Assembly (NCBI GenBank): GCA_965208065.1
Contig: OZ242313.1
Location: forward strand, 4,382,369-4,446,368
Origin: Spirochaetia bacterium
GTDB taxonomy: Bacteria > Spirochaetota > Spirochaetia > SZUA-6 > Bin103
DNA length: 64,000 nucleotides
Direction: 5' to 3'
The notes below the pieces were generated by a model. That model was given only the letters and a program-made list of their open reading frames with translations, searched no databases and was not told the DNA's origin. The translations under genes were made by a program, and so were the position numbers. Shown here in pieces: positions 4,543 through 54,602 of the stretch (positions within the stretch are counted from its first letter, which is position 1; each line of letters begins with the position of its first letter).

Positions 4543-5559
4543 GTGGACGGGAAGTTGCTTGAGGTGAAGGACCTGTCCATTTCGTTTCCGACCGAGGCGG
4601 GTGTAATCCGGGCGGTCAACGAGGTGTCGTTCGAGGTACCGCGGCGCACCACCGTGGGCGTGGTGGGGGAGAGCGGCTGCGGCAAGTCGGTTACCGCCCG
4701 CGCCCTGCTCAACATCGTGCAGCCGCCGGGGCGCATTGACGGCGGCGAAGTGCTGTTCCATGGCGACGACGGCGCGGGCGAGCCGGTCGACCTGCTGTCG
4801 ATGGCGCCCAAGGGCGCGGCCATCCGCCACTTCCGCGGCAAGCGCATCGCCATGATCTTCCAGGATCCGATGACCTGCCTGAGCCCCGTGCACACGGTCG
4901 GCAACCAGATCGCCGAGTCGATCCGCATCCACGACCGCGACGTGTCCGCTGGCGAGGCGCGCGACCGGGCGGTGGCGCTGCTGACCGAGGTGGGCATCCC
5001 CAACCCGGCGGGACGCCTGGATTCCTACTCCTTCGAACTCAGCGGCGGCATGCGCCAGCGCGCGCTGATGGCGGTGGCGCTGGCGGCGGAGCCGGAGCTG
5101 CTGATCGCGGACGAGCCCACCACCGCCATCGACGTCACCATCCAGGCCAAGTTCCTGGACCTGATCGGGCGCCTGCAGGACGAGCGCCACATGTCGATTC
5201 TGTTCATTACCCACGACCTGGGCGTGATCGCCGAGATCAGCCGCGTGGTGGTGGTGATGTATCTCGGCCGCGTGGTCGAGGTCGGCCGGGTGGAGGAGAT
5301 CTACGAGCGCCCGCTGCATCCCTACACCCAGCTCCTGTTCCGGTCGATCCCGAACGAGCACGTGCCGCGCAAGACGCCGCTGGCCCAGATCAAGGGCGTG
5401 GTGCCGGACCCGTTCTCGCGCCCACCGGGCTGTCCGTTCAGCGACCGCTGCCCGAGCTTCGTGCAGGGCACCTGCGACGCCGCGGTGCCGCCGCTGTACG
5501 AGGTGGAGGAACAGCACCACGCACGCTGCTTCCTCTACGACGGCGAGGTCGCCGGGTGA
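4543..5559 (+). CDS. dppD: peptide ABC transporter ATP-binding protein (DppD/OppD-like)
   Basis: Walker A 'GESGCGKS', ABC signature 'LSGGMRQR', and a C-terminal oligopeptide-transporter extension with Cys motif. Start is the GTG at 4543; the track start at 4525 is a TTG. Confidence 0.9.
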
Positions 5560-6575
5560 CCGACAAGGCGAACGGCGCGCTGTTGGAGCTGCGCCGCCTG
5601 CGCAAGCACTTTCCGATCCAGCGGGGCGTGTTGCGGCGCACCGTGGGCTGGATCCGCGCCGTGGACGACATCGACCTGGAGGTGAACACCGGCGAGACCG
5701 TGGGCCTGGTCGGCGAGAGCGGCTGCGGCAAGACCACCGCCCTGCGCACCATCGTGCGCGCCGTCGAGCCGACCGACGGCGAGATCCTGTTCCGGACCAA
5801 CGGCGAGATGAAGTCGATCACCGCTCTCGAATCCGACGCACTGCGGGAAGTGCGGCAGCAGATACGGGTGATCTTTCAGGACCCGCAGTCTTCGCTCAAT
5901 CCGCGCTTCAAGATCCGGGACATCATCGCCGAGCCGCTGAAGGCGTACGGCGTGACCGCCAGCCGCGGCGAGCTCGACGACATCGTCGTCGACACCATGG
6001 AGCGGGTCGGTCTGGACCGCGCCTACGTCAACCACTACCCCTACTCGCTCAGCGGCGGCCAGCGCCAGCGGGTCGGCATCGCCCGCGCGCTGACCACGCG
6101 GCCGCGGCTGATCCTGGCCGACGAGCCCACCTCCGCTCTCGATGCCAGCGTGCAGGCACAGATCATCAACCTGCTGCTGCAGTTACAACAACAGATGCAC
6201 CTGTCGATGTTGTTCGTGACCCACGACCTGAGCGTGGTGCGCCACGTCAGCGACCGCATCGCGATCATGTACCTGGGCGAAATCGTGGAACTCGGCGACA
6301 CCGACGAGGTGTTCCAGCGCCCCCGCCACCCCTACACCGAGGCGCTGTTCGCCGCCATCCCCAAGCCCGACCCGCGCCAGCCCAGCCGCCGGATCATCGT
6401 GGAAGGCGACATCCCCGATCCCGCCCACCGGCCGTCCGGTTGCCCGTTCCACCCCCGCTGCCGCTACGCCACCGACCTGTGCTCAACCGAGAAACCGGCC
6501 CTCGAGAACCGCGACGGCGCCCACCCCGTAGCCTGCCACTTTCCCCTCCCCCACGGCGAACAACCGGCCGAATAG
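5556..6575 (+). CDS. dppF: peptide ABC transporter ATP-binding protein (DppF/OppF-like)
   Basis: Walker A 'GESGCGKT', 'LSGGQRQR' signature; GTG start overlapping the dppD stop (GTGA). Confidence 0.9.
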
Positions 6576-6591: not shown

Positions 6592-7455
6592 TCAGGGGCC
6601 TCCGGCGGCGGGAGCCGCGGCGCCGAATTTCCAGATGCTGAGCGCCGTCTTGGCGAACAGCCACTCATGGTCTGCGGCGTTCAGGAAGGGCATGTGGCGG
6701 CGAAACAGGTCCAGGGCGGCGCGGTAGCCGATGTTGCGGAAGATGTGTGGGAAGTCGGTGCCCCACAGCAGTCGCTTCGGACCGAAGGCGTCGTAGATGC
6801 GCTCGTAGACCGCATGCTGATCCGGGAACGGGTAGCGGTCGGCTCCCGCTCCCGGCAGCGCGGCCTGCGCCGCCTGCGGCGTGAGCTTGACGTACACGTT
6901 CGGGTAGCGCGCCAGGGCGAGGACCTTGCGCAACTGCGGAAGGGGCTGTTCCTCGTACACCGCGGCGCCGCCGAGGTGATCGAGAATCACCTTGACCCCT
7001 TCGTGGCGGGCAACGATCGGCTCGATGGCCGGCTGCATCGCCGCCGGGCCGAAGCTCAGCATGCAGGCGCCCAGTTCCTCCGCCTTGCCCCAGATCGGGT
7101 CCTGGCCGGGAGCCGCCCACTCCGCCGGGTCGTCGGCTCGCCCCAGGTGCATGCGCAACCCCTCGAAGCCGTCTTCCGAGACCAGCCGTTCAAGCCGCTC
7201 CACCGCATCGGGCGCACGCCGGTCCATGATCGCGATGCCGGCGAAGGTGGTAGGGTACCGGGACAGGCAGTCGGCAACGTAGCGGTTGTCGAACAGGTAG
7301 TGGATCGGCTGCACGATGCACGCCTTGTCGACGCCGTGCTTGGCCATGGTCTCCAGCAGCAGCGCCACCGTGCCTGCCTCCGCCGTCCCCTCACCGGCCC
7401 ACGGATAACGCTCCGGGTCGTCGCTCCACACGTGCAAATGGCTGTCGATGATCAT
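6592..7455 (-). CDS. amidohydrolase family 2 (PF04909-like metal-dependent hydrolase / lactonase)
   Basis: 287 aa; N-terminal 'IIDSHLHVW' and C-terminal 'LLWGTDFPH' motifs typical of amidohydrolase_2. Confidence 0.85.
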   Translation of the reverse strand: MIIDSHLHVWSDDPERYPWAGEGTAEAGTVALLLETMAKHGVDKACIVQPIHYLFDNRYVADCLSRYPTTFAGIAIMDRRAPDAVERLERLVSEDGFEGLRMHLGRADDPAEWAAPGQDPIWGKAEELGACMLSFGPAAMQPAIEPIVARHEGVKVILDHLGGAAVYEEQPLPQLRKVLALARYPNVYVKLTPQAAQAALPGAGADRYPFPDQHAVYERIYDAFGPKRLLWGTDFPHIFRNIGYRAALDLFRRHMPFLNAADHEWLFAKTALSIWKFGAAAPAAGGP

Positions 7456-7487
7456 CGTTTCTCCCGCAGCTCCACTATACTGGAGCG

Positions 7488-8282
7488 ATGATCAAGCTTG
7501 GCTGCAACTTTCTGAGCCTCCGGGACACCGGCGTCGAAGAGTTCATCAGGATCTGCTACGACCTGCGGCTGGACGTGGTCGACTTCCACCAGCAGGCGTT
7601 CCAGTCGACCGACCCGGCCTACCTCACCCCCATCAAGCTGCTGTGCCTCCGGTACGGCCTGCCGATCGGCTACATAGGCGTCAGCGGGCTGTTCCACGGT
7701 ACCGCCGAGGAGCGCCGCCGGCACGCCGCCGACTCGAAACGCGCCGTCGACCTGGCGGCGTTCCTGGGCTCGCCCCTCATCCGCATGTTCTGCGCCACCG
7801 TCCCGGCCAGGAACGGCGACGGCGAGCACACTTGGCCGGCGATGATCGCCGGCTACCGCGAGGTGGCCGACTATGCCGCCGCCCGCGGCGTTGCCATCGG
7901 CCTGCAGAACCACCCGTCGACCGGCAAGGAGATGCTGCGCATCCGGCGCGAGGTCGACCGCGACAACTTCAACTTCATCATGGATACGGGGCAGTGGCTG
8001 GGATCGCCGGGCTCCGAGCCGCGCGGCGAGACCGATCCGCGGCACGACTTCTACGGCTACATGGCGCAGACCATTGCGCATGCCTCCTACATCCGCACCA
8101 AGTTCTACCGCATCGAGAGCGGCACCGAAGAGTGGCTCGACTACGAGCGCATCGTCGCGATCATCAAGGCCGCGGGTTACAACGGCTGCATCTCCATCGT
8201 GTACGAGGGCGAGCACCCGGACCGCGTCGAGCAGGTCCGTCTCGCCGCGGCCTGGCTTCGGGACCGCCTGGCGGGATTCTGA
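7488..8282 (+). CDS. sugar phosphate isomerase/epimerase (xylose-isomerase-like TIM barrel)
   Basis: 264 aa with AP_endonuc_2-like pattern; divergent from the amidohydrolase gene. Confidence 0.8.
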   Translation: MIKLGCNFLSLRDTGVEEFIRICYDLRLDVVDFHQQAFQSTDPAYLTPIKLLCLRYGLPIGYIGVSGLFHGTAEERRRHAADSKRAVDLAAFLGSPLIRMFCATVPARNGDGEHTWPAMIAGYREVADYAAARGVAIGLQNHPSTGKEMLRIRREVDRDNFNFIMDTGQWLGSPGSEPRGETDPRHDFYGYMAQTIAHASYIRTKFYRIESGTEEWLDYERIVAIIKAAGYNGCISIVYEGEHPDRVEQVRLAAAWLRDRLAGF

Positions 8283-8347
8283 CCTCCGGCCGGTTACGCC
8301 GGGCGGCGCTCGTTGACACGGTGACGGGCGCGTGGCAGATTCGAGCG

Positions 8348-9223
8348 ATGCCCGCGACGGTGTTCGACCAAGCGCAAGTGGAAGCGTATCGCAACGACGG
8401 CTACCTGCTGCTGCGGGACGCGTTCGACGACGCGGCCTTACAGCCGGTGCGCGACGCCATCGACGCCGAGGTGGATCAGCTCGCCGTCCGGTTCCACCGG
8501 GAGGGCAAGGTCAGCTCGCTCTATGCGGATGAGCCGTTCAACCGGCGCCTGGTGCTGCTTTGCGAGGAAGCCGGGGAGCAGGTGAAGATCTGGGAGCTGC
8601 GAACGCGCGCCTCGGTTACTCCCGCGCTGTACGACTTCGTACGCCATCCCGCGCTGCTGGATCTTCTGACCGCATTGCTGGGCCCGGAAGTAGCCTGGAC
8701 GGGCAGCTTCGCGGTGCGCATCAAGCTGCCGGAGACCGAGGAGACCGCGTTCCCCTGGCACCAGGACACCCAGTACTACGGCAACCCGACCCAGCACCTG
8801 CACGTGATCTCGGTGTGGATTCCGCTGGTGGACGTGGACGAGCACAACGGCTGCATGCACTTGCTTGCCGGCAGCCACAAATGGGGTCTGCTCGACGGCG
8901 CGCGGGACGACCAGCGTGTGGTGCGCATGTTCGAGGACGTGGAACAACGTTCCAAACCGGTCGTGCTGCCGATGCGGCGCGGCGGCCTGCTGGCGTTCAG
9001 CAACCTCACCTGCCACGCCAGCATGATGAACACCACCAACGAGATGCGCTGGAGCGTCGACCTCCGCTACGTCGTCCCCGAGGCGGCCGCCGCGCGCAGC
9101 GACGACGAGCGGCATGGCTACGCCACCATCTACGACCACTACCGCATGCGCCCAATCACCGTGGCCAGCCGCGACCCCGACCAGGTAGTGCCCTGGGAGC
9201 AGATCCGCAACCTGGTCAGTTAA
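8348..9223 (+). CDS. phytanoyl-CoA dioxygenase (PhyH) family Fe(II)/2-oxoglutarate oxygenase
   Basis: 291 aa; 'FPWHQDTQYY' (HxD motif) plus a distal His consistent with the PhyH facial triad. Internal ATG at 8348 chosen within a long spurious upstream ORF. Confidence 0.85.
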   Translation: MPATVFDQAQVEAYRNDGYLLLRDAFDDAALQPVRDAIDAEVDQLAVRFHREGKVSSLYADEPFNRRLVLLCEEAGEQVKIWELRTRASVTPALYDFVRHPALLDLLTALLGPEVAWTGSFAVRIKLPETEETAFPWHQDTQYYGNPTQHLHVISVWIPLVDVDEHNGCMHLLAGSHKWGLLDGARDDQRVVRMFEDVEQRSKPVVLPMRRGGLLAFSNLTCHASMMNTTNEMRWSVDLRYVVPEAAAARSDDERHGYATIYDHYRMRPITVASRDPDQVVPWEQIRNLVS

Positions 9224-9303
9224 TACCCTCCTTACTACCCTCTCTCAAGCGCGGCGACCGATGGAAGGTTGCCGGGCGCCCTACAACCTCATAGTCTGGC
9301 CCC

Positions 9304-10167
9304 ATGGCTACTGCCCTGCCCCTGGTTGCCCACTCCACGCTGGAGGAGCAGATTGCGGCGCTGGAGCGTGACGGCTACCTCTACATTCCCGGGTTTCTGA
9401 ACGCGGACGAGGTGGCCGAGTTGCGCGCCGCCGCCGCGCGCATCGCGCCGGTGCCGGAGAACCTGGACACCGACCTGACACCGGAGCGCGACGGCTACCT
9501 GAACAAGTGCATCAACAACGCGTTCAACCGCGACCCGCTGTTCCTGAAGTACCTCGACAAGCCGGGCCTGATCGACCTGGCCGAAGCGGTCCACGGCACC
9601 GACTGCCACATCATCGCCATGCACACCTGGATGGTGGGCCCGGGCCGTCCCGACCAGTCCCTGCACACCGACTGGCTGCCGATCTCCCTGCCCGCGGACG
9701 TGGCGGCCGATCCCCGGGTGCGCCTGCCGATCTTCATCACCACCGCCCACGTCTACCTGGACGACATCACCGACGAGATCGGGCCCACCGCCATCGTACC
9801 GGGGAGCCACCGCTCCGGGCGCGCTCCCGACCCGGCCCAGGACGCCAGCCGGCGAGGCGACCGCAGCCGCGCCAACGGCGGCGCGGCGCCGTCACAGCCG
9901 GAACTGGAGTGGAACGGCGTTGGCGAGCACAGCCCGCTGTGCAAGGCGGGCGACTGCCTGTTCTTCCGCTGCGAACTGTGGCACCGCGGCGCCGCCAACC
10001 GCAGCGGCCGCATCCGCCACACCTTCATGATTCACTACGCGCACCGCATGATTGCCCAGAAGTTCCCGCCCTACCTGAAGTTCCGGTTCGACCCCGAGAT
10101 CGTCGCCCGTGCCACCCCGCGCCAGCGCCGCCTGCTCGGCGAGCACGCCCAGAGCAACTACGACTGA
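9304..10167 (+). CDS. phytanoyl-CoA dioxygenase (PhyH) family protein, paralogue 2
   Basis: 287 aa; PhyH-like 'SLHTDW' and 'WHRGAAN' motifs. Confidence 0.85.
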   Translation: MATALPLVAHSTLEEQIAALERDGYLYIPGFLNADEVAELRAAAARIAPVPENLDTDLTPERDGYLNKCINNAFNRDPLFLKYLDKPGLIDLAEAVHGTDCHIIAMHTWMVGPGRPDQSLHTDWLPISLPADVAADPRVRLPIFITTAHVYLDDITDEIGPTAIVPGSHRSGRAPDPAQDASRRGDRSRANGGAAPSQPELEWNGVGEHSPLCKAGDCLFFRCELWHRGAANRSGRIRHTFMIHYAHRMIAQKFPPYLKFRFDPEIVARATPRQRRLLGEHAQSNYD

Positions 10168-30674: not shown

Positions 30675-30712
30675 ACAGACAGGCGTCTTGACATTAACAG
30701 ACATACGTCTGT
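30675..30712 (+). promoter_or_regulatory. candidate LexA operator: two AACAGAC half-site palindromes (AGAC-N4-GTCT) overlapping a TTGACA -35 (30688-30693) in the lexA promoter
   Basis: First copy is the imperfect 'acagac aggc gtcttg' (30675-30690). Second copy is the perfect 16-bp palindrome 'ACAGAC ATAC GTCTGT' (30697-30712), 15 nt before the lexA ATG. Confidence 0.5.
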
Positions 30713-30726
30713 ATTGTCGATTTCCC

Positions 30727-31368
30727 ATGACTGCCGCTTCCCGATACCGCTCCCAAGAGCGCAAACGGCGCATCTTCCTGTTTGTGCGCGACCGCATTCT
30801 GTCCGGGGCGCCGCCCACCACCCGCGAGGTGCAGGCCCACTTTGGCTTCCGCGCGGTACAGTCGGCGCGCGACTATCTGGAGGCCCTGGTGCGGGACGGC
30901 CTGCTGGACAAGGAGCCGGGCAAGGCGCGCGGCTACCGCCTGCCGGCCGGGAGCACGCCCTATCCCGCGGTGCTGGTGCCCCTCCTCGGACGGGTCCAGG
31001 CGGGCGCCCTCACTACCGCCAGCGAGGATCCGGACGGCTACGTGCCGGTGCAGTCGGCCAAGCCGCGCGACGAGCTGTTCGCCCTGCGTGTGCGCGGCGA
31101 AAGCATGCGCGACGCCGCCATTCTGCCTGGCGACGTGGTAATCGTGCACCGCCAGGAAAGCGCCGCCTCGGGCGAAATCGTCGTGGCACTGGTGGAGGAC
31201 GAGGCCACGGTAAAGCGTCTCAAGCTGCGCGCCGGGCGCATTGAGCTGCATCCCGCCAACCCGGCGTTCGATCCGATCGTGCCCGACGCCGACCGGGTGC
31301 GGATCCTCGGCAAGGTGATCGAGGTGCGCCGCTACCTGGAAGGCAGCGCCCCGGTGCTGGAACCGTGA
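30727..31368 (+). CDS. lexA: LexA repressor (S24 peptidase)
   Basis: N-terminal winged-helix region, Ala-Gly cleavage region, and Ser/Lys catalytic dyad ('GESM' ... 'KRL'). Confidence 0.9.
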   Translation: MTAASRYRSQERKRRIFLFVRDRILSGAPPTTREVQAHFGFRAVQSARDYLEALVRDGLLDKEPGKARGYRLPAGSTPYPAVLVPLLGRVQAGALTTASEDPDGYVPVQSAKPRDELFALRVRGESMRDAAILPGDVVIVHRQESAASGEIVVALVEDEATVKRLKLRAGRIELHPANPAFDPIVPDADRVRILGKVIEVRRYLEGSAPVLEP

Positions 31369-32084
31369 GCCCACCCGCTACGGACACGCCTCCGGTGGCG
31401 GACGTTGCCCTGATTGCGGGCGCTTCACTGGTGCCGGCCGCCGCCCTGTTGCCGGATGCCGCGCTGCAGCCGGCGGCTGCGCGCCTGCCGGGCGCCGCTT
31501 CGTTGATTGGCCGCGCCGACAGCGCCGAACGGTTGTGGCGCCCGGCGGAGCTTGCCGGGCGCCTGTGCGAACTGGCGTCCGACCCGCACGGGGTCCATCT
31601 GACCCTGGCCTGCGCGCTGATCCGCTCCTTTCAACAGGCCGCCGAACCGGCCGCCTGGGTCACCGCCTCCCGCGCCACCTTCTTTCCGCCCGACGCCGCC
31701 CACGGCGGCGTCGATCTGGCCGCCCTGCCGGTGGTTACCGTACCCGGTCCAGAGGCGGTGCTCAGCGTCGCCGAGCGGCTCACCCGGTGCGGTTCCTTTG
31801 GGCTGATCGTGCTGGAGCTGGGCACTCACCTGGCCGTACCGGCGGCCGTGCTCGGCCGCCTGGCACGCCTGGCGCGGCGGCACGATACCGCTCTGCTGTG
31901 TCTCACCACGTCCAAATCGGAGACTACCCTCGGGTCGCTGGTGGCACTCCGCGGGCGCGGCTTTCGCACTGCAACCCGCCATCCGGGCTACTTTCACTGT
32001 GGCATCCGGGTAATCAAGGATCGCCGCCACGGCCCCGGCGGGTCGCTGGCGGTCGCCTGCCATGCCCCCTACGGCATGTGTTGA
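31365..32084 (+). CDS. imuA: ImuA-like protein (RecA/SulA-fold component of the imuA-imuB-dnaE2 cassette), divergent
   Basis: Assigned from position (ATGA overlap with lexA, directly upstream of imuB) and size; sequence is Ala/Leu-rich and divergent. Confidence 0.6.
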   Translation: MSPPATDTPPVADVALIAGASLVPAAALLPDAALQPAAARLPGAASLIGRADSAERLWRPAELAGRLCELASDPHGVHLTLACALIRSFQQAAEPAAWVTASRATFFPPDAAHGGVDLAALPVVTVPGPEAVLSVAERLTRCGSFGLIVLELGTHLAVPAAVLGRLARLARRHDTALLCLTTSKSETTLGSLVALRGRGFRTATRHPGYFHCGIRVIKDRRHGPGGSLAVACHAPYGMC

Positions 32085-32085
32085 C

Positions 32086-33615
32086 GTGGGTGTGCTGCCG
32101 CTGCAACTGCTGCTGCGGCGGCACCCCGGCTGGAAACGGCAACCGGTCGCGGTGGTCAGCGAGGACAAGCCGCTGGGCATCGTGGTGGCAGTGAACCGGC
32201 GTGCCCGCGCCGCCGGAGTGCGGGCCGGGATGCGCTACGCTGCGGCGCTCTCCCTGGTCTCCCACCTGCACGCCGGTACGATCTCTCCCGACGACCTGGC
32301 GGCGGGAGTACGGTTGATCCGGGAGCGGCTGCTGACCATCAGCCCGCGGGTCGAATGGGGCGGCGACGGCTGGGCCGCTTCCGGGTTGTTCTGGCTGGAG
32401 GTGGCCGGTTTGCGGCGCCACTATCCCTCCGGCGCCGCGCTGGCCGACGCCATCGGAAAGCTCCTGCGCACCGCCGGCCTGGCAGCCGCGGTGGTGCTCG
32501 GCTACACCCGGCTGGGCACCTGCCTGCTGGCTCAGGACAGCGTCGCGCGGGGCGGCTGCCGAACGCTGGTGGTTGCCGATGAGGCCGGCGAACGCGCCGC
32601 CGTCGCCGCCGTGCCGCTCGACCGGCTGCCCCTGGAACCGGCGGCGCGCGACCTGCTGGAGAAGCTGGGCGTGGCCACCGTGGAGCACTTTCTGCGCCTC
32701 CCCTACGCCGAACTGCTGCGCCGCTTCGGGGCGCCGGTGGCGGAGTTGCGCCGTACCGCCCGCGACCCCACGCGCCTGCCCGTGCAGGGCCGCGACGCAC
32801 CGCTGCCGCTGCAGCAGCGGCGGCGGCTGACCTACCGGGCGAGCGATGCCGAACGCCTGCTGCGCCACTGCCGGGTGCTCCTCGACCGGCTGCTCGGCCG
32901 CCTGCAGCATGACGGGCGCGCGGTCACCGAACTGCAGTTGCAACTCCTGCTGGAAGACGGCTCGCGGCGGCACGAGCTGATTCGCCCCGCCGCCCCCACC
33001 CGCCAGCGTCACCTGCTGCTGGATCTGCTGGCCCTGCGGCTGCGGGCGCTCGACCTGACCGCGGGGGTGGAGGAACTGGCCCTCGACGCCCGCCATACGC
33101 CGTTGCCGGGCGGTCAGGGCGAGCTGTTCCGCACCAGCCAGAGACGCGACCCGGCTGCCGGAGCCGCCGCGCTGGCGAACATCCGCGCCGAATTCGGCAA
33201 CACGGCCGTGGTGCGCGCCGTACTGGAGGATGCGCACCTGCCGGAGGCGCAGTACCGCTGGCAGCCGGTCGACCGCCTGCAAGAAGCGCAACCGCGGCCG
33301 CCGGCGGCGCAGGCCGCACCTCTCGTACGGCGGGTACTCGCCCGCCCACAGCCCATTGCGGCGGCGCGGCGGCACGGCTGCTGCGGGCCCTTCCTGGTCT
33401 CCAGCGGCTGGTGGTACGCGAGCGCCGTTCCGCCAACTGGCGGTCCGCGGCACGGCAGCCCCCCTGCCGGCCACATCCACGACCACCAGGTCCCCTACGA
33501 CCGCGGCCCCGCCAATCGCGCCTACTACTTCATCAGCTCCGCGGACGGCACCCTGGAGTGGATCTACTACGACCTCCTCACCAGCCGCTGGTTCCGGCAA
33601 GGCTGGGTGGAGTGA
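32086..33615 (+). CDS. imuB: ImuB (catalytically inactive Y-family polymerase homologue)
   Basis: N-terminal '[13 protein letters not shown]...PVAVV' resembles the ImuB/DinB-like fold; GTG start 1 nt after the imuA stop; position between imuA and dnaE2. Confidence 0.75.
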
Positions 33616-33628
33616 ACGGACATCGGCG

Positions 33629-36871
<3,243 letters not shown>

Positions 36872-36987
36872 CCATACCCAGCAACGCAGTCAGCGATCGT
36901 ACTTCAGTTCACACAGTGACATAGGCGGACATCCGGTGCGAAACAAGGTGTTCTGAAGTCGAGCACACTGGAGAGAACTCCATCCCC

Positions 36988-37230
36988 TCATGTACCATAG
37001 GTTTCATCGTATATTTCTGAAAGCAGGCGCTCCTCGAAGAGCCAATACCGTGTTGGATGCACCGGCGTCTTTGTCTCCAAAACACTCTGGGTAGCGGGAG
37101 TTAGGAATACCTCCTCTCCATTTTCCCTACGTACTTTCCTGTCGTCTATCACTTCGACTATCACCGATTCATCGTCGTGAAACACGAGCTTCGAACCAAC
37201 CGGAACTCCCATTTCACGGAAATGTATCAT
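36988..37230 (-). CDS. small DUF4357-like domain protein (restriction/defence-associated C-terminal-type domain as a stand-alone protein)
   Basis: 80 aa; strong GGAG RBS; pattern 'KLVF...VEVIDD..V...GEEVFLTPATQSVL...YWLFEE' resembles DUF4357 as I remember it. Confidence 0.5.
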   Translation of the reverse strand: MIHFREMGVPVGSKLVFHDDESVIVEVIDDRKVRRENGEEVFLTPATQSVLETKTPVHPTRYWLFEERLLSEIYDETYGT

Positions 37231-37247
37231 CCTTTCTCCGCTAAGTG

Positions 37248-38198
37248 TCAGACGGACCTATAAGGGATCTTTGAGACATCTACCTTGGGTTCCGACCTGT
37301 AGTTACGAACCAGCATTCCTTGCAAAGTTTTTGCCACGTCAGTTTGGTGGAGCACTGCTGGCCCCACGGTTATCGTGCACTCCGAATTAAGCAACTGATC
37401 CATACCGAATCCACTATCTTTGACGTGATGCCGCAAGTTCCGCCCACTGACCTCCGTCCGGATCTTACTCTGCTCCGGTGCAGCAACAACGGCACGCCGC
37501 TCACGCTCGAGCGCGTAGGAAGGATGTTTGTGGAGGAAACGACTCTTCAGCGCGGTAGCAAAGACAGTTTCAAGTAACTCCTCATAGCGCGGGTAACTCG
37601 AAGCGGATTTCCTTCGACTAACCTCATCCCAAACCTGCGCTGCAGTATCGAGAAACCGCTCAAACTTGGTTGCCGTAGCGTCCCTTGTCGCATCTTCATA
37701 ATTCACCTCATACAACCTGTCCCTCGGAACGGTAGTCGCGAACGAGCAGCCACGCCCATTATCTCCGTACGCTCGCCAGTGAGATAGGTGATCGTGAGAC
37801 TTGTGGACGGAATCAACTTCGAATGGCAAGAAAGAAAGAATGTAGGCGTGACTGACAGGAGATTCAAGCCACTTGGATATACTGCTTCTTCGAAAGAAAT
37901 CACGTCCACCAAATACGTACCAGCCTTCTTGGGGATCGGTAAGATGGACCGAGTCATACAAGCGAAAATACTGGGTCGACGGCTCTGCAAGCAGGGCGTG
38001 AGCAGTTGCGAGCGACGTGTAGTGGACCACCTTGACCTCCTTGGAGTCTCCGTCGAGACGACGTTCATCTTCCAGTTCGTCAGACAGTTCCTCGGCGGCC
38101 TTCCTGAGGTGACTGAGTGCCGCATTGACTTTCCCACTCCGCAGTGCGGTTTTCACCTCCTTGAGCGTGCTCTCCCATGTCACCATGGTATTGGCCAC
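37248..38198 (-). CDS. DUF2971-family protein with N-terminal coiled-coil extension
   Basis: 'VVHYTSLATAHALLAEP...FRLYDSVHLTDPQEG' and 'SHWRAYGDNGRGCSF' match the two signature blocks of DUF2971 (hYTS...NDP.E and W..YAd.h.G) as I recall them. Confidence 0.65.
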   Translation of the reverse strand: MANTMVTWESTLKEVKTALRSGKVNAALSHLRKAAEELSDELEDERRLDGDSKEVKVVHYTSLATAHALLAEPSTQYFRLYDSVHLTDPQEGWYVFGGRDFFRRSSISKWLESPVSHAYILSFLPFEVDSVHKSHDHLSHWRAYGDNGRGCSFATTVPRDRLYEVNYEDATRDATATKFERFLDTAAQVWDEVSRRKSASSYPRYEELLETVFATALKSRFLHKHPSYALERERRAVVAAPEQSKIRTEVSGRNLRHHVKDSGFGMDQLLNSECTITVGPAVLHQTDVAKTLQGMLVRNYRSEPKVDVSKIPYRSV

Positions 38199-38207
38199 CG
38201 AGTGAAT

Positions 38208-38567
38208 CTATAGCCTCCGGCGTCCGGGCATCGAGTCTCCCGGAAGAAGACGCTGAATGCGTTCAAGGACGCTATCTGTCCCCTCATACTTGGAGACGGC
38301 TATGAAAATACGTGCATCCTCAAGGTTGACCTCGTCATCGCCCTCGTACACTCTGTCATCATCTGCAAGCACGGTCTTCTTCGCATCAAGGACCGTAATC
38401 AGAGCCTTGGCCTTGTCTGCGATCGAGAGCACATCCCATGCCGTCATCATTCCGTCTTTCGACTTAGCTACGACCGAAACGCCGTTTATTTCCAATTCGT
38501 ATTCACGCCAGTTAGCGCCTACGTTGGTGTCTTTGCTGTGCATCAGTTGGTCCTTGTCCTCGGTCAT
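38208..38567 (-). CDS. hypothetical acidic protein (119 aa), first gene of the island operon
   Basis: GAGGAAG RBS 9 nt upstream of the ATG; AT-rich promoter region upstream; no recognised domain. Confidence 0.55.
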   Translation of the reverse strand: MTEDKDQLMHSKDTNVGANWREYELEINGVSVVAKSKDGMMTAWDVLSIADKAKALITVLDAKKTVLADDDRVYEGDDEVNLEDARIFIAVSKYEGTDSVLERIQRLLPGDSMPGRRRL

Positions 38568-38736
38568 CCGTGAGCTTCCTCTGGAATCATATCATCGATT
38601 CACCATCGGTGCAGATCGATTACTATACTGATCGAAAGGCGGGGATACCACCATAGGCCATACCGAGCTGATGAGCACCTGCCGGCACTATCTTGTCGAG
38701 TTGAGAAGGCGTTTGTCACAGCCTCTGAACCTCCGC

Positions 38737-39603
38737 TCAAGTAGTCCGGCGGTTGGCGTGGCGGATGGGGACGCCGGCGCGGGCGGCCTGCTCGTACAGG
38801 TAGCCGGTGGCCCAGCGCAACTGGCGGGCGTTGACGTGCTCGATCATCAACGGCACGTCGGCGTCCAGCTTGGCCAGCTCGGTGAAGTAGGCGTGGTAGT
38901 CGAGGCTGCCGTTGCCGGCGAAGGTCTCGTCGAAGCGGACCTGGACGTGGCGCGGCATTTGGGTGTCCTTGGCGTGGCAGCTCACCAGGTGCGGCCCGAG
39001 CTTGGCGAAGCAGTCGCGGATGAAGTCGCCGCTACGGTAGAAGCGCCGCGGACAGAGGGTGATGTTGACCGGATCCAGGTGGGCGGCGAACGCCGGGCGG
39101 TCCACCGCCTGCAGGATCTCCAGGTACACGTCGGCCGAATCGGGCAGGTAGCGCGACTCGGTCTCCAGCACGAACTTCGTACGGCTCGGCTGCACGGTGT
39201 CGATGATGCGCTGCACCGATTCCACCAGGGTGTCGATGGAGCGCTGGCTGAAGTTCTCGGGATAGTGCTTGTTGAACGAGTTGCTGCCCGCCCAGCCGCC
39301 GTGCGCCACGCAGCACAGCGACCCGATGCGCTCGGCACTCTCAAGGCGCCGGCAGATCTCGGCGATGTTGCGCTCGCGCTGCTCCACGTCGGGATCGATC
39401 ACGTTGATACCGAACGCGCCGGTCTCGGCGATCACGATATCCGCCTCCGCAAGCGCCGTCACCGCCTCGCGCAGCAACGCCGGGTCGGAGAAGCGCGGAT
39501 GATAGGTGGCCGCGAAGCCCTGCTCCTGCAGGTGCCGCACGAACTGTTCCGGGGTCTCGACCGGTGTAAAGACCGGCCCGCCGATGCGTATCTGTCTACT
39601 CAT
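38737..39603 (-). CDS. sugar phosphate isomerase/epimerase (xylose-isomerase-like TIM barrel)
   Basis: AP_endonuc_2-like blocks; internal Met start (MSRQIRIGG...). Confidence 0.8.
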   Translation of the reverse strand: MSRQIRIGGPVFTPVETPEQFVRHLQEQGFAATYHPRFSDPALLREAVTALAEADIVIAETGAFGINVIDPDVEQRERNIAEICRRLESAERIGSLCCVAHGGWAGSNSFNKHYPENFSQRSIDTLVESVQRIIDTVQPSRTKFVLETESRYLPDSADVYLEILQAVDRPAFAAHLDPVNITLCPRRFYRSGDFIRDCFAKLGPHLVSCHAKDTQMPRHVQVRFDETFAGNGSLDYHAYFTELAKLDADVPLMIEHVNARQLRWATGYLYEQAARAGVPIRHANRRTT

Positions 39604-39610
39604 TGATTCC

Positions 39611-40654
39611 TCATTTCCAGGGGTCGAGTATGACCTTGCCGCACTGATGGGAAGCACACAATTCGAGCGCTTCCTGCACCCGGCTCAGCGGCAGCCGATG
39701 GCTGACGTGCTGGTCCAGGAGCGGCGACGAGCGCACCACCGCCAGCAGCCGCTCGAAGTCGTTCATGCTGTAATGCCACTGGCCGATCAGCGTCAACCCG
39801 GTTCTGATCATGTCGGGACTCACCCGGATCGGCAACTCCTCGTTGCACTCGGCCACGAACGCGACTTGGCCGCGCGGCCGGGCCGCCTCCACGCACACCC
39901 GCTGCGCGGCGACCACCCCCGCACACTCCACTGCGCAGTCGACCCCGAGCCCGTCGGTAGTGAGCGACCGAATGTGCGCGACCAGCTCGGGATCGGCGGG
40001 ATCCAGTACTGCGGCGGCGCCCATGGCGCGGGCGCGCTCAACGCGCCACGGCACGCCCTCGACCACGATGGCACGCGCACCCCGTGAGGCGGCGTTCACC
40101 AGGGCGCCGAGCCCCACCGGCCCGGCGCCAGTGACCAGCACCGTGTCGAACGCATCGACCGCCATGCGCTGCATGGCGCCGAACGTGGGCCCCAGCCCGC
40201 ACCAGGTCAGCGCCGCCTGCTCGAACGAGATGTCGTCCGGGATGCGCGGCAGCATCCAGGAACGCGCCAGCCGGAATTGTGCGTAGGCGCCGGTGCGCGG
40301 CGGGCTGCCGGTCTGGCCGTTAGCCTGGCTCCGATGCCGGACCTTGTTCATGCAGTGCATGACGTGCCCGGCGCGGCAGTAGCGGCAGGTGCCGCAGGAA
40401 AACAGCCCCAGGATCACCACCCGGTCGCCGACCGCCAGGTCGGAATGGCCGTCCACGGCCGCCACCTCGCCCACCCCTTCATGCCCGAGCGCCTCGGCGG
40501 TGCGGCCCGATTCCCAGGTCTTGTACTCGGTGCACATCGGCACCGCCCGCACCCTGATCAGCACCAGGTCGCCGCGCGGCTCCGGGATCGGCACGTCGAC
40601 CAGCCGCGCCTGCCGCGGCGCGTGGATCACCGCCTTCTTCATCGTGTTGCCCAT
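39611..40654 (-). CDS. zinc-dependent alcohol dehydrogenase (MDR family, sorbitol/threonine dehydrogenase-like)
   Basis: Structural Zn Cys cluster 'CGTCRYCRAGHVMHC', GxGxxG 'VTGAGPVGLG'; AAGGAG RBS before the chosen ATG. Confidence 0.85.
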   Translation of the reverse strand: MGNTMKKAVIHAPRQARLVDVPIPEPRGDLVLIRVRAVPMCTEYKTWESGRTAEALGHEGVGEVAAVDGHSDLAVGDRVVILGLFSCGTCRYCRAGHVMHCMNKVRHRSQANGQTGSPPRTGAYAQFRLARSWMLPRIPDDISFEQAALTWCGLGPTFGAMQRMAVDAFDTVLVTGAGPVGLGALVNAASRGARAIVVEGVPWRVERARAMGAAAVLDPADPELVAHIRSLTTDGLGVDCAVECAGVVAAQRVCVEAARPRGQVAFVAECNEELPIRVSPDMIRTGLTLIGQWHYSMNDFERLLAVVRSSPLLDQHVSHRLPLSRVQEALELCASHQCGKVILDPWK

Positions 40655-51512: not shown

Positions 51513-52061
51513 TCAGGTGGAGCCTTGGCCGCGGATCATTACTACCTTGCCGGTGCGCACCATCTCGATGACCGCGAACTTGCGCAGCATGCTGATCAGG
51601 GCGTCGATCTTCTCGGTGGCGCCGGTGGCCATCACGATCATCGACTCCTCGGTCAGGTCCTCGGTCTTGCAGCCGAAGTGCTGGGCGATCTGCAGCGCCT
51701 CGGTGCGCTCCCCGGCGCCGACCGCCACCTTGACCAGCGCCAGCTCGCGCACCACCGCGTTGTCGAACGTGTGGTCGTAGCAGTGCAGCACGTCCACCAG
51801 CTTGTTGACCTGGGCCAGGATCTGGACCAGGCCGCCGTGCGCGCCGGTGGTGCCGATGGTCATGCGCGAGTAGTCGCCATCCTTGGACGGCGACACCACC
51901 AGCGATTCGATGTTGAAGCCGCGCCGCGCGAATACCTGCGCGATGCGCGCGAGCACGCCCGGCTTGTTGGCCACCAGGGCGCTCAAGGTGTGGATCGCTC
52001 CGTTCTCCATGTTCATTCCGTTGTTCGTGGTGCTCGCTGCTTTGGTCGCCTTGGTTGCCAT
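51513..52061 (-). CDS. ilvN: acetolactate synthase small (regulatory) subunit
   Basis: ACT domain 'HTLSALVANKPGVLARIAQVFARRGFNIESL'; ATGA overlap with the ilvB stop. Confidence 0.85.
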   Translation of the reverse strand: MATKATKAASTTNNGMNMENGAIHTLSALVANKPGVLARIAQVFARRGFNIESLVVSPSKDGDYSRMTIGTTGAHGGLVQILAQVNKLVDVLHCYDHTFDNAVVRELALVKVAVGAGERTEALQIAQHFGCKTEDLTEESMIVMATGATEKIDALISMLRKFAVIEMVRTGKVVMIRGQGST

Positions 52062-53791
52062 CAGGTCGATCCTGTCGGCTTGGCGAGCTTCACCGTCGGC
52101 GGCTCCACGATCATGTCCTCCAGCGCGCTGCCGGCGGGGATCATCGGGAACACGTTGTCGGTCTTCTCCACCTCGGCGTTGATCACGCACGGGCCGTCGT
52201 TGTATTCCAGCGCGGCGGTGAGGACGCGGCGCACGTCGCCGGGCCGGCGCAGGTTGAACCCCTTGGCCCCGAACGACTCGGCCAGCTTGGCGAAGTCGGG
52301 GTTGCCCTCCAGGTCGACGCCGCTCTCGCGCTCGTCGTAGAACAGCTCCTGCCACTGGCGCACCATGCCGAGGTAGTGGTTGTTGAGCACGATCACCTTG
52401 ACCGGCAGCTTGTGGATGCAGGCGGTGGCCAGCTCGCACATGGTCATCTGGAAACCGCCGTCGCCGACGATGGCCAGCACCGGGTCGTCCGGCCGTCCGA
52501 ACTGGGCGCCGATGGCGGCCGGGAAGCCGTAGCCCATGGTCCCCGCCCCGCCGGAGGTGAGCCAGTTCTCGGGGTAGTCGGTCTTGTAGAACTGCGCCGC
52601 CCACATCTGGTGCTGCCCGACGTCGGTGGACACGATCGCCCGCCCCTCGGTGAGCCGGTACAGTTCGTCGATGACGTGCTGCATCTTGAGGCCGCCCTGC
52701 TTCTTGTACTTCAGGGGATACTTGACCTTGTAGCGGTCCAGATTGCGCAGCCAGTCATCGGAATCCAGGCGGGTGACGTGCTTGATCAGCTCTTCCACCA
52801 CCAGGCGGGCGTCGCCCTGGATGAAGAAGTCGGGCTTGATCATCTTGCCGTTCTCGCCGGGGTCGATGTCGATGTGGATAACTGTCGCGTTGCGGCAAAA
52901 GCGGTGCGGCTGACCGACAATGCGGTCGTCGAACCGGGAGCCGATGGACATCACCAGGTCGCATTCCACTATCGCCTTGTTGGCGTAGGCGGTGCCGTGC
53001 ATGCCGAGCATGCCCAGCGACAGCGGGTGGCTCTCCGGGAACGCGCCCTTGCCGAGCAGCGTGGTGGTGACCGGCGCCTGCAGGCGCTCCGCCAGGCGGC
53101 GCACCGAGTCGGATGCCTTGGCGATAAGCGCGCCGTGGCCGGCCAGCATGACCGGGCGCTTGGCCCCGTTGAGGGCCGCGGCCACCTGTACGATCACGTC
53201 GCGGTCGCCCTCCTCGGGCACCTCGTAGCCGGGAATGTCCATCGCCTCGTAGGAGCCGTTGCCCATTATCGCCTGGCTTACGTCCTTGGGCACGTCGATC
53301 AGCACCGGGCCGGGCCGGCCGGTGGTGGCAATGTGGTACGCCTCGCGCACGATGCGCGGGATGGAGTCGGTCTCCTTGACCAGGTAGCTGTGCTTCACGA
53401 TCGGCATGGTGATGCCGAAGATGTCCGCCTCCTGGAAGGCGTCCTTGCCGAGCATGCCGGTAACCTGCTGGCCGGTGACCACCAGCATCGGCACCGAATC
53501 CATGTGCGCGGTCATGATGCCGGTCAGCGTGTTGGTGGCGCCGGGGCCGCTGGTGACCAGCACCACGGCCGGCTTGCCGGTGGCGCGGGCGTAGCCGTCG
53601 GCCATGTGGCTGGCGCCCTGCTCGTGCCGCACCAGGACGAACTTCATCTTGTTGTCGGTGGATACCAGCGCATCGAAGATCGGCAGGGCTGCTCCGCCGG
53701 AGAGCCCGAACAGGTACTCGATACCTTCGTTTTCCAGCGCCTTGACCAATGCCTGGCCGCCATCGAAGCCATTCTGATCCGGTGATGCCAT
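52061..53791 (-). CDS. ilvB: acetolactate synthase large subunit
   Basis: 576 aa; three TPP-enzyme domains, 'GDGGFQM' TPP-binding motif; [11 protein letters not shown]. Confidence 0.95.
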
Positions 53792-53948
53792 GGTTCTCCC
53801 TCCTCGGATCGATTAGAGAGGGAAATATGATGGATATCGTACACAGATGCAAGAGACAAACGAAGAAAAGGCGCCTGACCCCTCGATCTTTCGAGAAAAG
53901 ACCCCTGAATTGTCTATTTTGTTGAGTGTTACTGGATTCTTGCGCTAT

Positions 53949-54602
53949 TCAGATATGTGTTTCGACTGCTTGAACGACAGCGTCGGCTGTTTCTGCTGTC
54001 ACCATGCGCAATTTCGCAGCTATGCCGCGCGCCTGCTCGAAAAACTCACCGTCCGGTGCAGAACTCAGGTTGATCTCCGCGGTCAGCAGGGCGGCACTCG
54101 CGGCCGCGGCAGCCAGGTGGGCGGCCGCGCCGATGTCCGACACGGCATGCCGGTTGGCCACCGGCGCCAGCCGCTCGGCCAGGGTGAGGATCGCGGCGCA
54201 CGCCTCCGCGATCGCCAGCGGCGCTGCGGTGGCGCGGCGGGTGGCGGCGGCCAGCGCGTCACGGCGCGCCCGGCGCTCATCCGGCGACCCCTTCGGCAGG
54301 CGCAGCGCGGCCATGTATGCCGCGAAGCTGCGCACGTCCTCCAGGGCGGCGGCCTGCAGTTCCGCGGTGAGCCGGTCGGCGCGTGCAACCGCCTCGCCGG
54401 CCAGCTCCCACGCCTGCTCGTAGCCTTTCTTGCCGTCGGTGAGCCGCGCCACCATCGCCACCAGCGCGCTCGCCAGCGCTCCGGTGACCGCCGCCACCGA
54501 GCCGCCGCCCGGCGTCGGCGAAGCCGATCCGGTCCGCTCCAGGAACTCGCGCACCGGCAGATCGAAGAGCGGCCCGCCGGGGCCGCCGGTCACGTTATTC
54601 AT
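53949..54602 (-). CDS. fchA: methenyltetrahydrofolate cyclohydrolase / formiminotransferase-cyclodeaminase-domain protein (FchA-like)
   Basis: FTCD_C-type helical domain; 4-nt overlap with the folD stop. Confidence 0.75.
   Translation of the reverse strand: MNNVTGGPGGPLFDLPVREFLERTGSASPTPGGGSVAAVTGALASALVAMVARLTDGKKGYEQAWELAGEAVARADRLTAELQAAALEDVRSFAAYMAALRLPKGSPDERRARRDALAAATRRATAAPLAIAEACAAILTLAERLAPVANRHAVSDIGAAAHLAAAAASAALLTAEINLSSAPDGEFFEQARGIAAKLRMVTAETADAVVQAVETHI

Follow-up and report, generated by a model that had tools for sequence, protein, structure and literature searches.

Proteins of the DUF2971 family were predicted in a 2025 survey to be modified H-Y-E ADP-ribosyltransferases (ARTs), which carry an ExE motif, contain large helical inserts and resemble DarT and AbiGi (PMC12522546). 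One of them, Aristaios, is a 316-amino acid (aa) DUF2971 protein encoded on the Lactococcus plasmid pUCCL641_199 and provides, as a single gene, abortive-type phage resistance (PMC11381338). The PDC systems are instead candidates, defined by 'guilt by embedding' in known systems (Payne et al., bioRxiv 10.1101/2024.01.29.577857). Here, a low guanine-cytosine (GC) islet of three genes, named A, B and C, is analysed in a stretch of 64,000 nucleotides (nt) from a Spirochaetia bacterium (assembly GCA_965208065.1, contig OZ242313.1, positions 4,382,369 to 4,446,368), referred to as the window. We hold, with slightly better than even confidence, that this is a horizontally derived defence or abortive-infection islet made of two unrelated pieces, namely a module in which a ubiquitin-like (Ubl) protein (A) is paired with a DUF2971-family predicted ART (B), and the remnant of a PDC-S57 gene (C).

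A low-GC islet of three genes

The islet is flanked by dnaE2, which ends at 36871, and by an AP_endonuc_2/xylose-isomerase-like gene (38737-39657), and consists of the following features:

36872-38736, no strand: the low-GC islet as a whole, from the dnaE2 stop up to the AP_endonuc_2-like gene, supported by its GC and by homologous islets of low GC in relatives
38568-38625, minus strand: block upstream of A (…CGATCTGCACCGATGGTGAATCG…TATGAT…AGGAAG), kept in relatives with the same arrangement
38208-38567, minus strand: gene A, 119 aa, acidic, predicted ubiquitin-like (beta-grasp)
37248-38198, minus strand: gene B, 316 aa from GTG, DUF2971-family predicted ART with an N-terminal helical hairpin
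36988-37230, minus strand: gene C, 80 aa, equivalent to the C-terminal domain of T5orf172/GIY-YIG proteins of the PDC-S57 type

The composition of the islet differs from that of its host, in keeping with the foreign origin proposed in an initial annotation of this DNA, which had read the three genes as a horizontally acquired low-GC island. Indeed, GC over 36880-38730 is 0.522 as compared to 0.686 +/- 0.028 for all other 1850-nt stretches of the window (z = -5.9), and in 300-nt windows it ranges from 0.48 to 0.58 over about 36900-38700 with flanks of 0.62-0.82 on both sides. In parallel, GC at third codon positions is 0.62 in A, 0.58 in B and 0.50 in C, as against 0.92 in dnaE2. Elsewhere in the window, 300-nt patches below 0.56 are confined to one intergenic stretch (about 53650-54100). 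This stretch precedes an acetolactate-synthase-like gene on the minus strand (52061-53791) and is probably a leader or promoter rather than an island.

Other parts of the same annotation also stand, including three packed minus-strand open reading frames with ribosome-binding sites, the acidic nature of the 119-aa protein (isoelectric point 4.70), and the lack of integration signatures, since searches of the islet for a tRNA, flanking direct repeats and an integrase returned none. The gaps are 9 nt from the A stop to the B GTG and 17 nt from the B stop to the C ATG, instead of the 10 and 18 initially given, and every start is preceded by a Shine-Dalgarno-like run (AGAGGAAG, GGAGG and GGAGAAAGG). 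Gene callers start B at an ATG at 38186, yielding 312 aa; close homologues open with MAS or MAA at the position of the GTG. The block upstream of A was compared among the window and the related loci L001, L014 and L016; no consensus sigma-70 promoter was called within it, and no Rfam family was found within the islet.

Gene B, a predicted ADP-ribosyltransferase of the DUF2971 family

The assignment of B to DUF2971, first made from the sequence alone, holds for the family, although the window protein itself falls short of the Pfam threshold. In particular, window B scores 17.1 bits against DUF2971 (PF11185; E = 0.014), below the gathering score of 22, while its L004 orthologue reaches 22.4 bits, 52 of 56 B relatives match at E <= 1 (best 1.8e-6), and half of the ten relatives in a separate sample are at or above the gathering score. 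None of the 56 family members matches Pfam DarT at E <= 1, and no other family is consistently found. The family is large, as a profile built from the 39 close relatives of B matched 3412 cluster representatives over the full length, with E <= 1e-30 in 224 cases.

A set of residues is invariant even among relatives at identities of about 25-30%, namely H55-Y56-T57, D84, E87-G88, S118, W137, Y140-G141, G146, K220 and E227-x-E229-x-R231. Of the residues in the ART motifs, H55, Y56, T57, Y115, S118, Y140, E227 and E229 do not vary in 32 close relatives, and all of them except Y115 are also invariant in the 56 distant ones. The AlphaFold model of B (predicted local distance difference test score, pLDDT, 80; predicted template modelling score 0.80) places motif I, H55-Y56-T57, at the close of strand 50-57, motif II, Y115/S118, within strand 114-121, with Y140 likewise conserved, and motif III, E227-x-E229, immediately before strand 230-235, the core being surrounded by the N-terminal helical hairpin and by long helical inserts. 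B thus carries the motifs that define the H-Y-E clade of ARTs, and its conserved residues and modelled inserts match the published description of DUF2971 (PMC12522546).

Searches against other resources were less informative. B-family profiles run against PDB sequences and Foldseek of the model against PDB returned nothing, NCBIfam gave no usable match for B, nor for A or C, and in PHROGs a single weak match was found for B (phrog_1762, 3.7e-5), to a family of unknown function. B and nine of ten sampled relatives also match PADLOC PDC-S31 weakly (1e-3 to 5e-7), and these partial matches on a 208-position profile are too weak for membership.

Gene A, a predicted ubiquitin-like partner

Gene A has no match in the hidden Markov model libraries searched (Pfam, including Multiubiquitin, PADLOC, NCBIfam and PHROGs) and has 11 close relatives. 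A scan of metagenomes with the A alignment returned the window's own organism alone, and tblastn against plasmids gave no match. The fold is suggested by the predicted structure. A core at residues 21-92, modelled at about 90 pLDDT, adopts a beta-beta-alpha-beta-beta-beta topology, that is, the beta-grasp expected of a bacterial Ubl, and the best solved matches of the model are the bacterial Bil/Bub Ubl proteins. The core is preceded by a disordered N-terminus and followed by a 23-aa tail beyond an invariant YEG, whose Gly lies at the end of beta-5, in the position of the C-terminal GG of ubiquitin. In addition, two 76-aa genes of the more distant locus L011 are weakly similar to A in sequence (E ~1e-6).

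Co-conservation of A and B

A adjoins or overlaps B at every locus whose B is at least 57% identical to window B, and also in L007 (48%). B is found without A in L013, L012 and L011 (53%, 42% and 32% identity to window B, respectively), and in the first two of these it keeps all the invariant residues. The case of L013 is instructive, as its B opens with the ribosome-binding site and the first eight codons (MEQDNSKK) of A (L013 5960-6060 compared with L009 7590-7660). A therefore seems to have been excised there by a clean in-frame deletion, and its loss must be survivable.

Both genes are under purifying selection, with a ratio of non-synonymous to synonymous substitution rates (dN/dS) of 0.11-0.30. 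As only A and B recur together outside the clade of the window, at one locus (L007), and B occurs alone in L011, L012 and L013, the proposal of a three-gene system is not borne out; the unit that recurs is A plus B.

Gene C, the presumed remnant of a separate gene

The third gene was initially taken for a stand-alone DUF4357-like domain. Pfam gives no support for this. At thresholds of E <= 1 to 10, DUF4357 was matched neither by C or its 90-aa relatives nor by the C-terminal region of the L004 protein or a full-length plasmid homologue, with the proviso that HMMER filters drop very weak matches and may miss a remote homology. C matches PADLOC PDC-S57 instead (6e-18), at profile positions 128-207 of 212 only, and lacks a T5orf172 match in Pfam. 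An intact homologue of 204 aa follows A-B in L004, a Spirochaetia metagenome-assembled genome (MAG). This protein has an N-terminal T5orf172/MUG113 (GIY-YIG-type) domain (3e-16) and matches PDC-S57 at 7e-65, and C aligns with its C-terminal 80 residues. Judging from these alignments, C is the C-terminal domain of a PDC-S57-type gene whose nuclease domain appears to have been deleted in frame. The initial idea of a trio acting as a unit thus gives way to a remnant lying beside A-B. Neither the C family nor its full-length parent matches any Pfam family beyond T5orf172/MUG113. Full-length plasmid homologues are annotated as 'GIY-YIG nuclease family protein', one of which stands alone beside a restriction-modification system.

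The related loci display the gene in successive states of decay. It is frameshifted yet full-length in L020/21; it has lost the nuclease domain in frame while keeping its start (MSVII|RKRRPNLNFREMG) in P0041/42 and L014/15, such nuclease-less relatives being 90 aa long; it carries an additional small deletion in the window; it is reduced to stubs in L001 and L018; and it is absent from L002 and L016. To go by the sequences, the loss of the nuclease domain and that of A in L013 would be the same kind of start-preserving in-frame deletion. The truncated gene is not simply drifting. Window C and L014 C, both nuclease-deleted, differ by 11.5 non-synonymous changes (181.8 sites) and 17.5 synonymous ones (55.2 sites), corresponding to a dN/dS of 0.16 (Fisher p = 4e-6). 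Selection has thus continued to constrain the orphan domain, which weakens the view of C as plain junk.

Residence at the lexA-imuA-imuB-dnaE2 cassette

The window holds a complete lexA-imuA-imuB-dnaE2 cassette, and the adjacency of the islet to these SOS mutagenesis genes was already recognised in the initial annotation, which saw neither the ubiquitin-like fold of A nor the persistence of the module at this site. The genes of the cassette are:

30727-31350: lexA
31512-32084: imuA
32062-33615: imuB
about 33644-36871: dnaE2

The longest dnaE2 open reading frame opens at 33230 and would share about 385 nt with imuB; since dnaE2 homology starts near 33644, the true start is probably there.

Two arrangements are found among the related loci. 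In the first one, the order AP_endonuc_2, A, B and, where present, C faces dnaE2-imuB-imuA-lexA (window, L001, L014-19). In the second one, the module is placed inside the cassette, with dnaE2 pointing away on one side and A, B and, where present, C facing imuB-imuA-lexA on the other (L002/3, L004, L020/21, L026/27). L024/25 cover the dnaE2-A-B side only, with a 235-aa gene after B and no imuB called. These arrangements span DnaE2 identities to the window of 74-91% (measured for L001-L021), and the genes outside the cassette differ between L026 and L002. In L005 and L008/9 the module is bordered by mere fragments of dnaE2 or imuB. The named records of cassette-linked loci are Spirochaetia MAGs, and all linked loci seem to belong to one high-GC clade. 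In all related loci A-B(-C) has a GC of 0.45-0.59 in hosts of 0.63-0.70, and it remains low even where DnaE2 identity to the window is 74-77%. This persistence may reflect either repeated replacement of the islet by transfer or a block of amelioration.

Just upstream of lexA, a perfect palindromic box (CAGACATACGTCTG) is present at 30698-30711, with a one-mismatch copy at 30676. As a CAGAC-N4-GTCTG box also precedes lexA in L002, L004 and L020, it is probably the LexA operator of the clade. Where the cassette is split, dnaE2 has its own box beside the start (L002 5185-5230, L004 9455-9500, L020 6640-6680), so that SOS control has apparently been kept. In relatives of this second group the box thus lies in the dnaE2-A spacer, beside dnaE2 and about 200-440 nt from A. 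In the window no such box was found near A, including the block 38568-38625. LexA control of the islet was accordingly set aside, the boxes being those at the lexA promoter (30698) and by the dnaE2 of relatives.

Other genes have also settled at these loci. A 95-aa gene of the dnstrm_HI1420 type (antitoxin-like), with no obvious toxin partner, lies between B and imuB in L002 (7036-7323, minus strand). In addition, a three-gene cluster is found directly upstream of A-B, by an N-terminal dnaE2 fragment, in L008 (1534-5663), L009 (3190-7505) and L010 (340-4655). It encodes proteins of 540-602 aa, 272-285 aa and 545 aa, the last with DUF6339, and may be a further defence cassette, as yet without a name, that entered at this site.

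Defence neighbourhoods away from the cassette

Away from dnaE2, relatives of the module are found next to defence genes. A-B adjoins Druantia DruA in L007, and the A-less B of L012 lies near a DruA fragment. In L011, the neighbours of the B-like gene are a DarG-C-terminal-like gene, a type I restriction-modification system and an E1/Ubl operon. The first of these (4983-5666, minus strand) is divergent from the DUF2971-like gene and encodes a 227-aa protein whose match to DarG is confined to the C-terminal, DarT-binding part (PADLOC 2e-56). The operon (6987-9943, minus strand) combines a ThiF-type E1 with a twice-repeated pair encoding a 125-aa protein with a weak Prok-E2_E match and a 76-aa Ubl; it is convergent with the B-like gene, ruling out their co-transcription. 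The defence or abortive-infection role initially suggested for the islet fits with these neighbours, with the PADLOC candidate matches and with the activity of Aristaios, a tested DUF2971 protein (PMC11381338).

A proposed mechanism and its alternatives

In the mechanism that we propose, B would be the effector, a predicted NAD+-dependent ART of the H-Y-ExE type. Once triggered, for instance by an infecting phage, B would bring replication to a halt by modifying DNA or an essential protein. A, encoded just upstream and presumably on the same transcript, would be its dedicated partner; at a guess, it may bind B as a regulator or inhibitor, which seems more likely than an indispensable antitoxin. 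C would be what is left of a neighbouring single-gene candidate, PDC-S57, after in-frame deletion of the nuclease domain. Several observations weigh against this reading. At least eight related loci (L005, L006, L015-17, L019-21) carry a frameshifted or truncated B, and, being broken in many close relatives, the module must often be dispensable. The islet has no neighbour that could remove ADP-ribose (macro, NADAR or ARH domain), no A-B fusion protein was found among 148 relatives, tblastn of B against 72,556 plasmids and against phages gave no match, and a scan of viral contigs with the B alignment returned none.

The small acidic gene upstream of B, with an overlap or short gap suggesting translational coupling, would also suit a type II toxin-antitoxin pair, in which B is a constitutively toxic ART, A a labile antitoxin, and the two together stabilise a mobile imuA-imuB-dnaE2 cassette. 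ARTs of the DarT type are toxins of such pairs (PMC12522546), a gene resembling the DarG C-terminal domain lies beside the B-like gene of L011, and the module is embedded in the cassette in many genomes. This reading is nevertheless unlikely, as L012 and L013 have an intact B but no A, a loss that was survivable in the latter, Aristaios acts as a lone gene, and the ubiquitin-like fold is no known antitoxin fold. A as an essential antitoxin was rejected on the first of these grounds. The loss of function in at least eight related loci raises instead the question of whether the islet is a decaying selfish remnant devoid of present function in this genome, all the more so as C is apparently a deletion product and PDC-S57 is found at every stage of decay. 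That all three window frames are intact with Shine-Dalgarno-like sequences, and that dN/dS is far below 1 for A, B and even the truncated C, makes this improbable. The location at the cassette could have a meaning of its own, if B ADP-ribosylated DNA as DarT does, generating lesions at which replication stalls and which, having induced SOS, would be bypassed or fixed as mutations by ImuA/ImuB/DnaE2. In favour of such coupling to the SOS mutasome, A-B lies by dnaE2 in two arrangements over the whole range of DnaE2 identities (74-91%), the genes beyond the cassette are different ones in at least L026, fragments of dnaE2 or imuB still flank the module in L005 and L008/9, and depletion of DarG in M. 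tuberculosis triggers a DNA-damage response (PMC7689832). Yet the linked loci are apparently one clade, so that shared ancestry could explain the linkage, the module invariably lies on the other strand, A-B in L007 and B alone in L011-13 are away from dnaE2, and no LexA box precedes A in the window, although the spacer box by dnaE2 in the second group may allow shared control there. We therefore give this coupling as little credence as the functionless remnant.

A could also be a substrate or cofactor of B rather than its regulator, with ADP-ribosylation of the Ubl producing a signal or a step of conjugation independent of E1 and E2. SidE and CteC are bacterial ARTs that ADP-ribosylate ubiquitin, and a SidE/CteC-like reaction would be in line with the fold of A and with the invariant Gly of YEG that closes beta-5, as well as with the A-like Ubls of L011, which come with an E1 and an E2-like gene adjoining the B-like gene. 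The window islet has no phosphodiesterase, E1, E2 or deubiquitinase, some genomes keep a persisting or functional B in the absence of A, and the L011 B-like gene and E1 operon are convergent, making this the most remote of the explanations considered. It is rather unlikely, if a shade less so than the mutasome coupling, that the Ubl and the DUF2971 ART form an undescribed immune or stress module, with the ART acting on or gated by the Ubl, and/or that a true link exists between DNA ADP-ribosylation and error-prone bypass. A defence islet composed of an A-B module and a PDC-S57 remnant remains the reading that we prefer.

Significance

The family of B (Aristaios/DUF2971) and the parent of C (PDC-S57) are already catalogued. 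In the literature searched there is no description of a conserved Ubl partner for a DUF2971 enzyme, of the long residence of A-B at the imuB/dnaE2 cassette with persistently low GC, or of a selectively maintained orphan PDC-S57 C-terminal domain. DUF2971 is very large, with about 6000 species according to published counts and 3412 cluster representatives in the subfamily of B, and only one member has been tested, so that a conserved and apparently translationally coupled Ubl partner offers a handle on how such an ART may be regulated. A Ubl-ART pair would join two separate themes of bacterial immunity, Ubl pathways and ADP-ribosylation, while the repeated placement at or in the SOS mutagenesis cassette is a lead on a possible connection between DNA ADP-ribosylation and translesion synthesis. 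Lastly, the constraint on the nuclease-less PDC-S57 domain suggests a function of its own, for instance in sensing or inhibition.

Comparison with known systems

The Ubls of the Bil/Bub systems (Ubl3/multi-ubiquitin domain; PMC11601603) have three beta-grasp domains as compared to the single one of A, which in addition lacks a neighbouring E1, E2 and deubiquitinase and has its 23-aa tail past the conserved Gly. Indeed, no E1, E2 or deubiquitinase partner is found in the window islet or in the A-B loci, and only the A-like proteins of L011 have a ThiF and a weak Prok-E2_E. Nor does the pair behave as a type II toxin-antitoxin system, whose toxin needs a cognate antitoxin, given the intact B without A in L012 and L013.

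The two-gene layout and the proposed defence role of A-B are like those of DarT-DarG, and the survey predicts a related ART clade (PMC12522546); the distant B-like gene of L011 even has a DarG-C-terminal-like neighbour. A-B differs in that it has no macrodomain or NADAR partner, the partner being a predicted beta-grasp Ubl, and in that B survives without it. In addition, PADLOC finds no DarT or DarG match for A, B or C, and the neighbours are dnaE2 and the AP_endonuc_2 gene.

As for PDC-S57, C matches the C-terminal third (6e-18) and is without the T5orf172 nuclease domain, which makes up the first ~100 residues of PDC-S57, so that it is not a full-length member, while its intact relative in L004 matches over the full length (7e-65). 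Comparison with Aristaios is possible at the level of the family, as no pairwise similarity emerged from tblastn against the 72,556 plasmids, a collection in which the presence of the Aristaios plasmid was not checked. B shares the DUF2971 family with Aristaios; the latter is a lone gene, whereas window B is preceded by a conserved ubiquitin-like partner, though B stands alone in L012 and L013 as Aristaios does.

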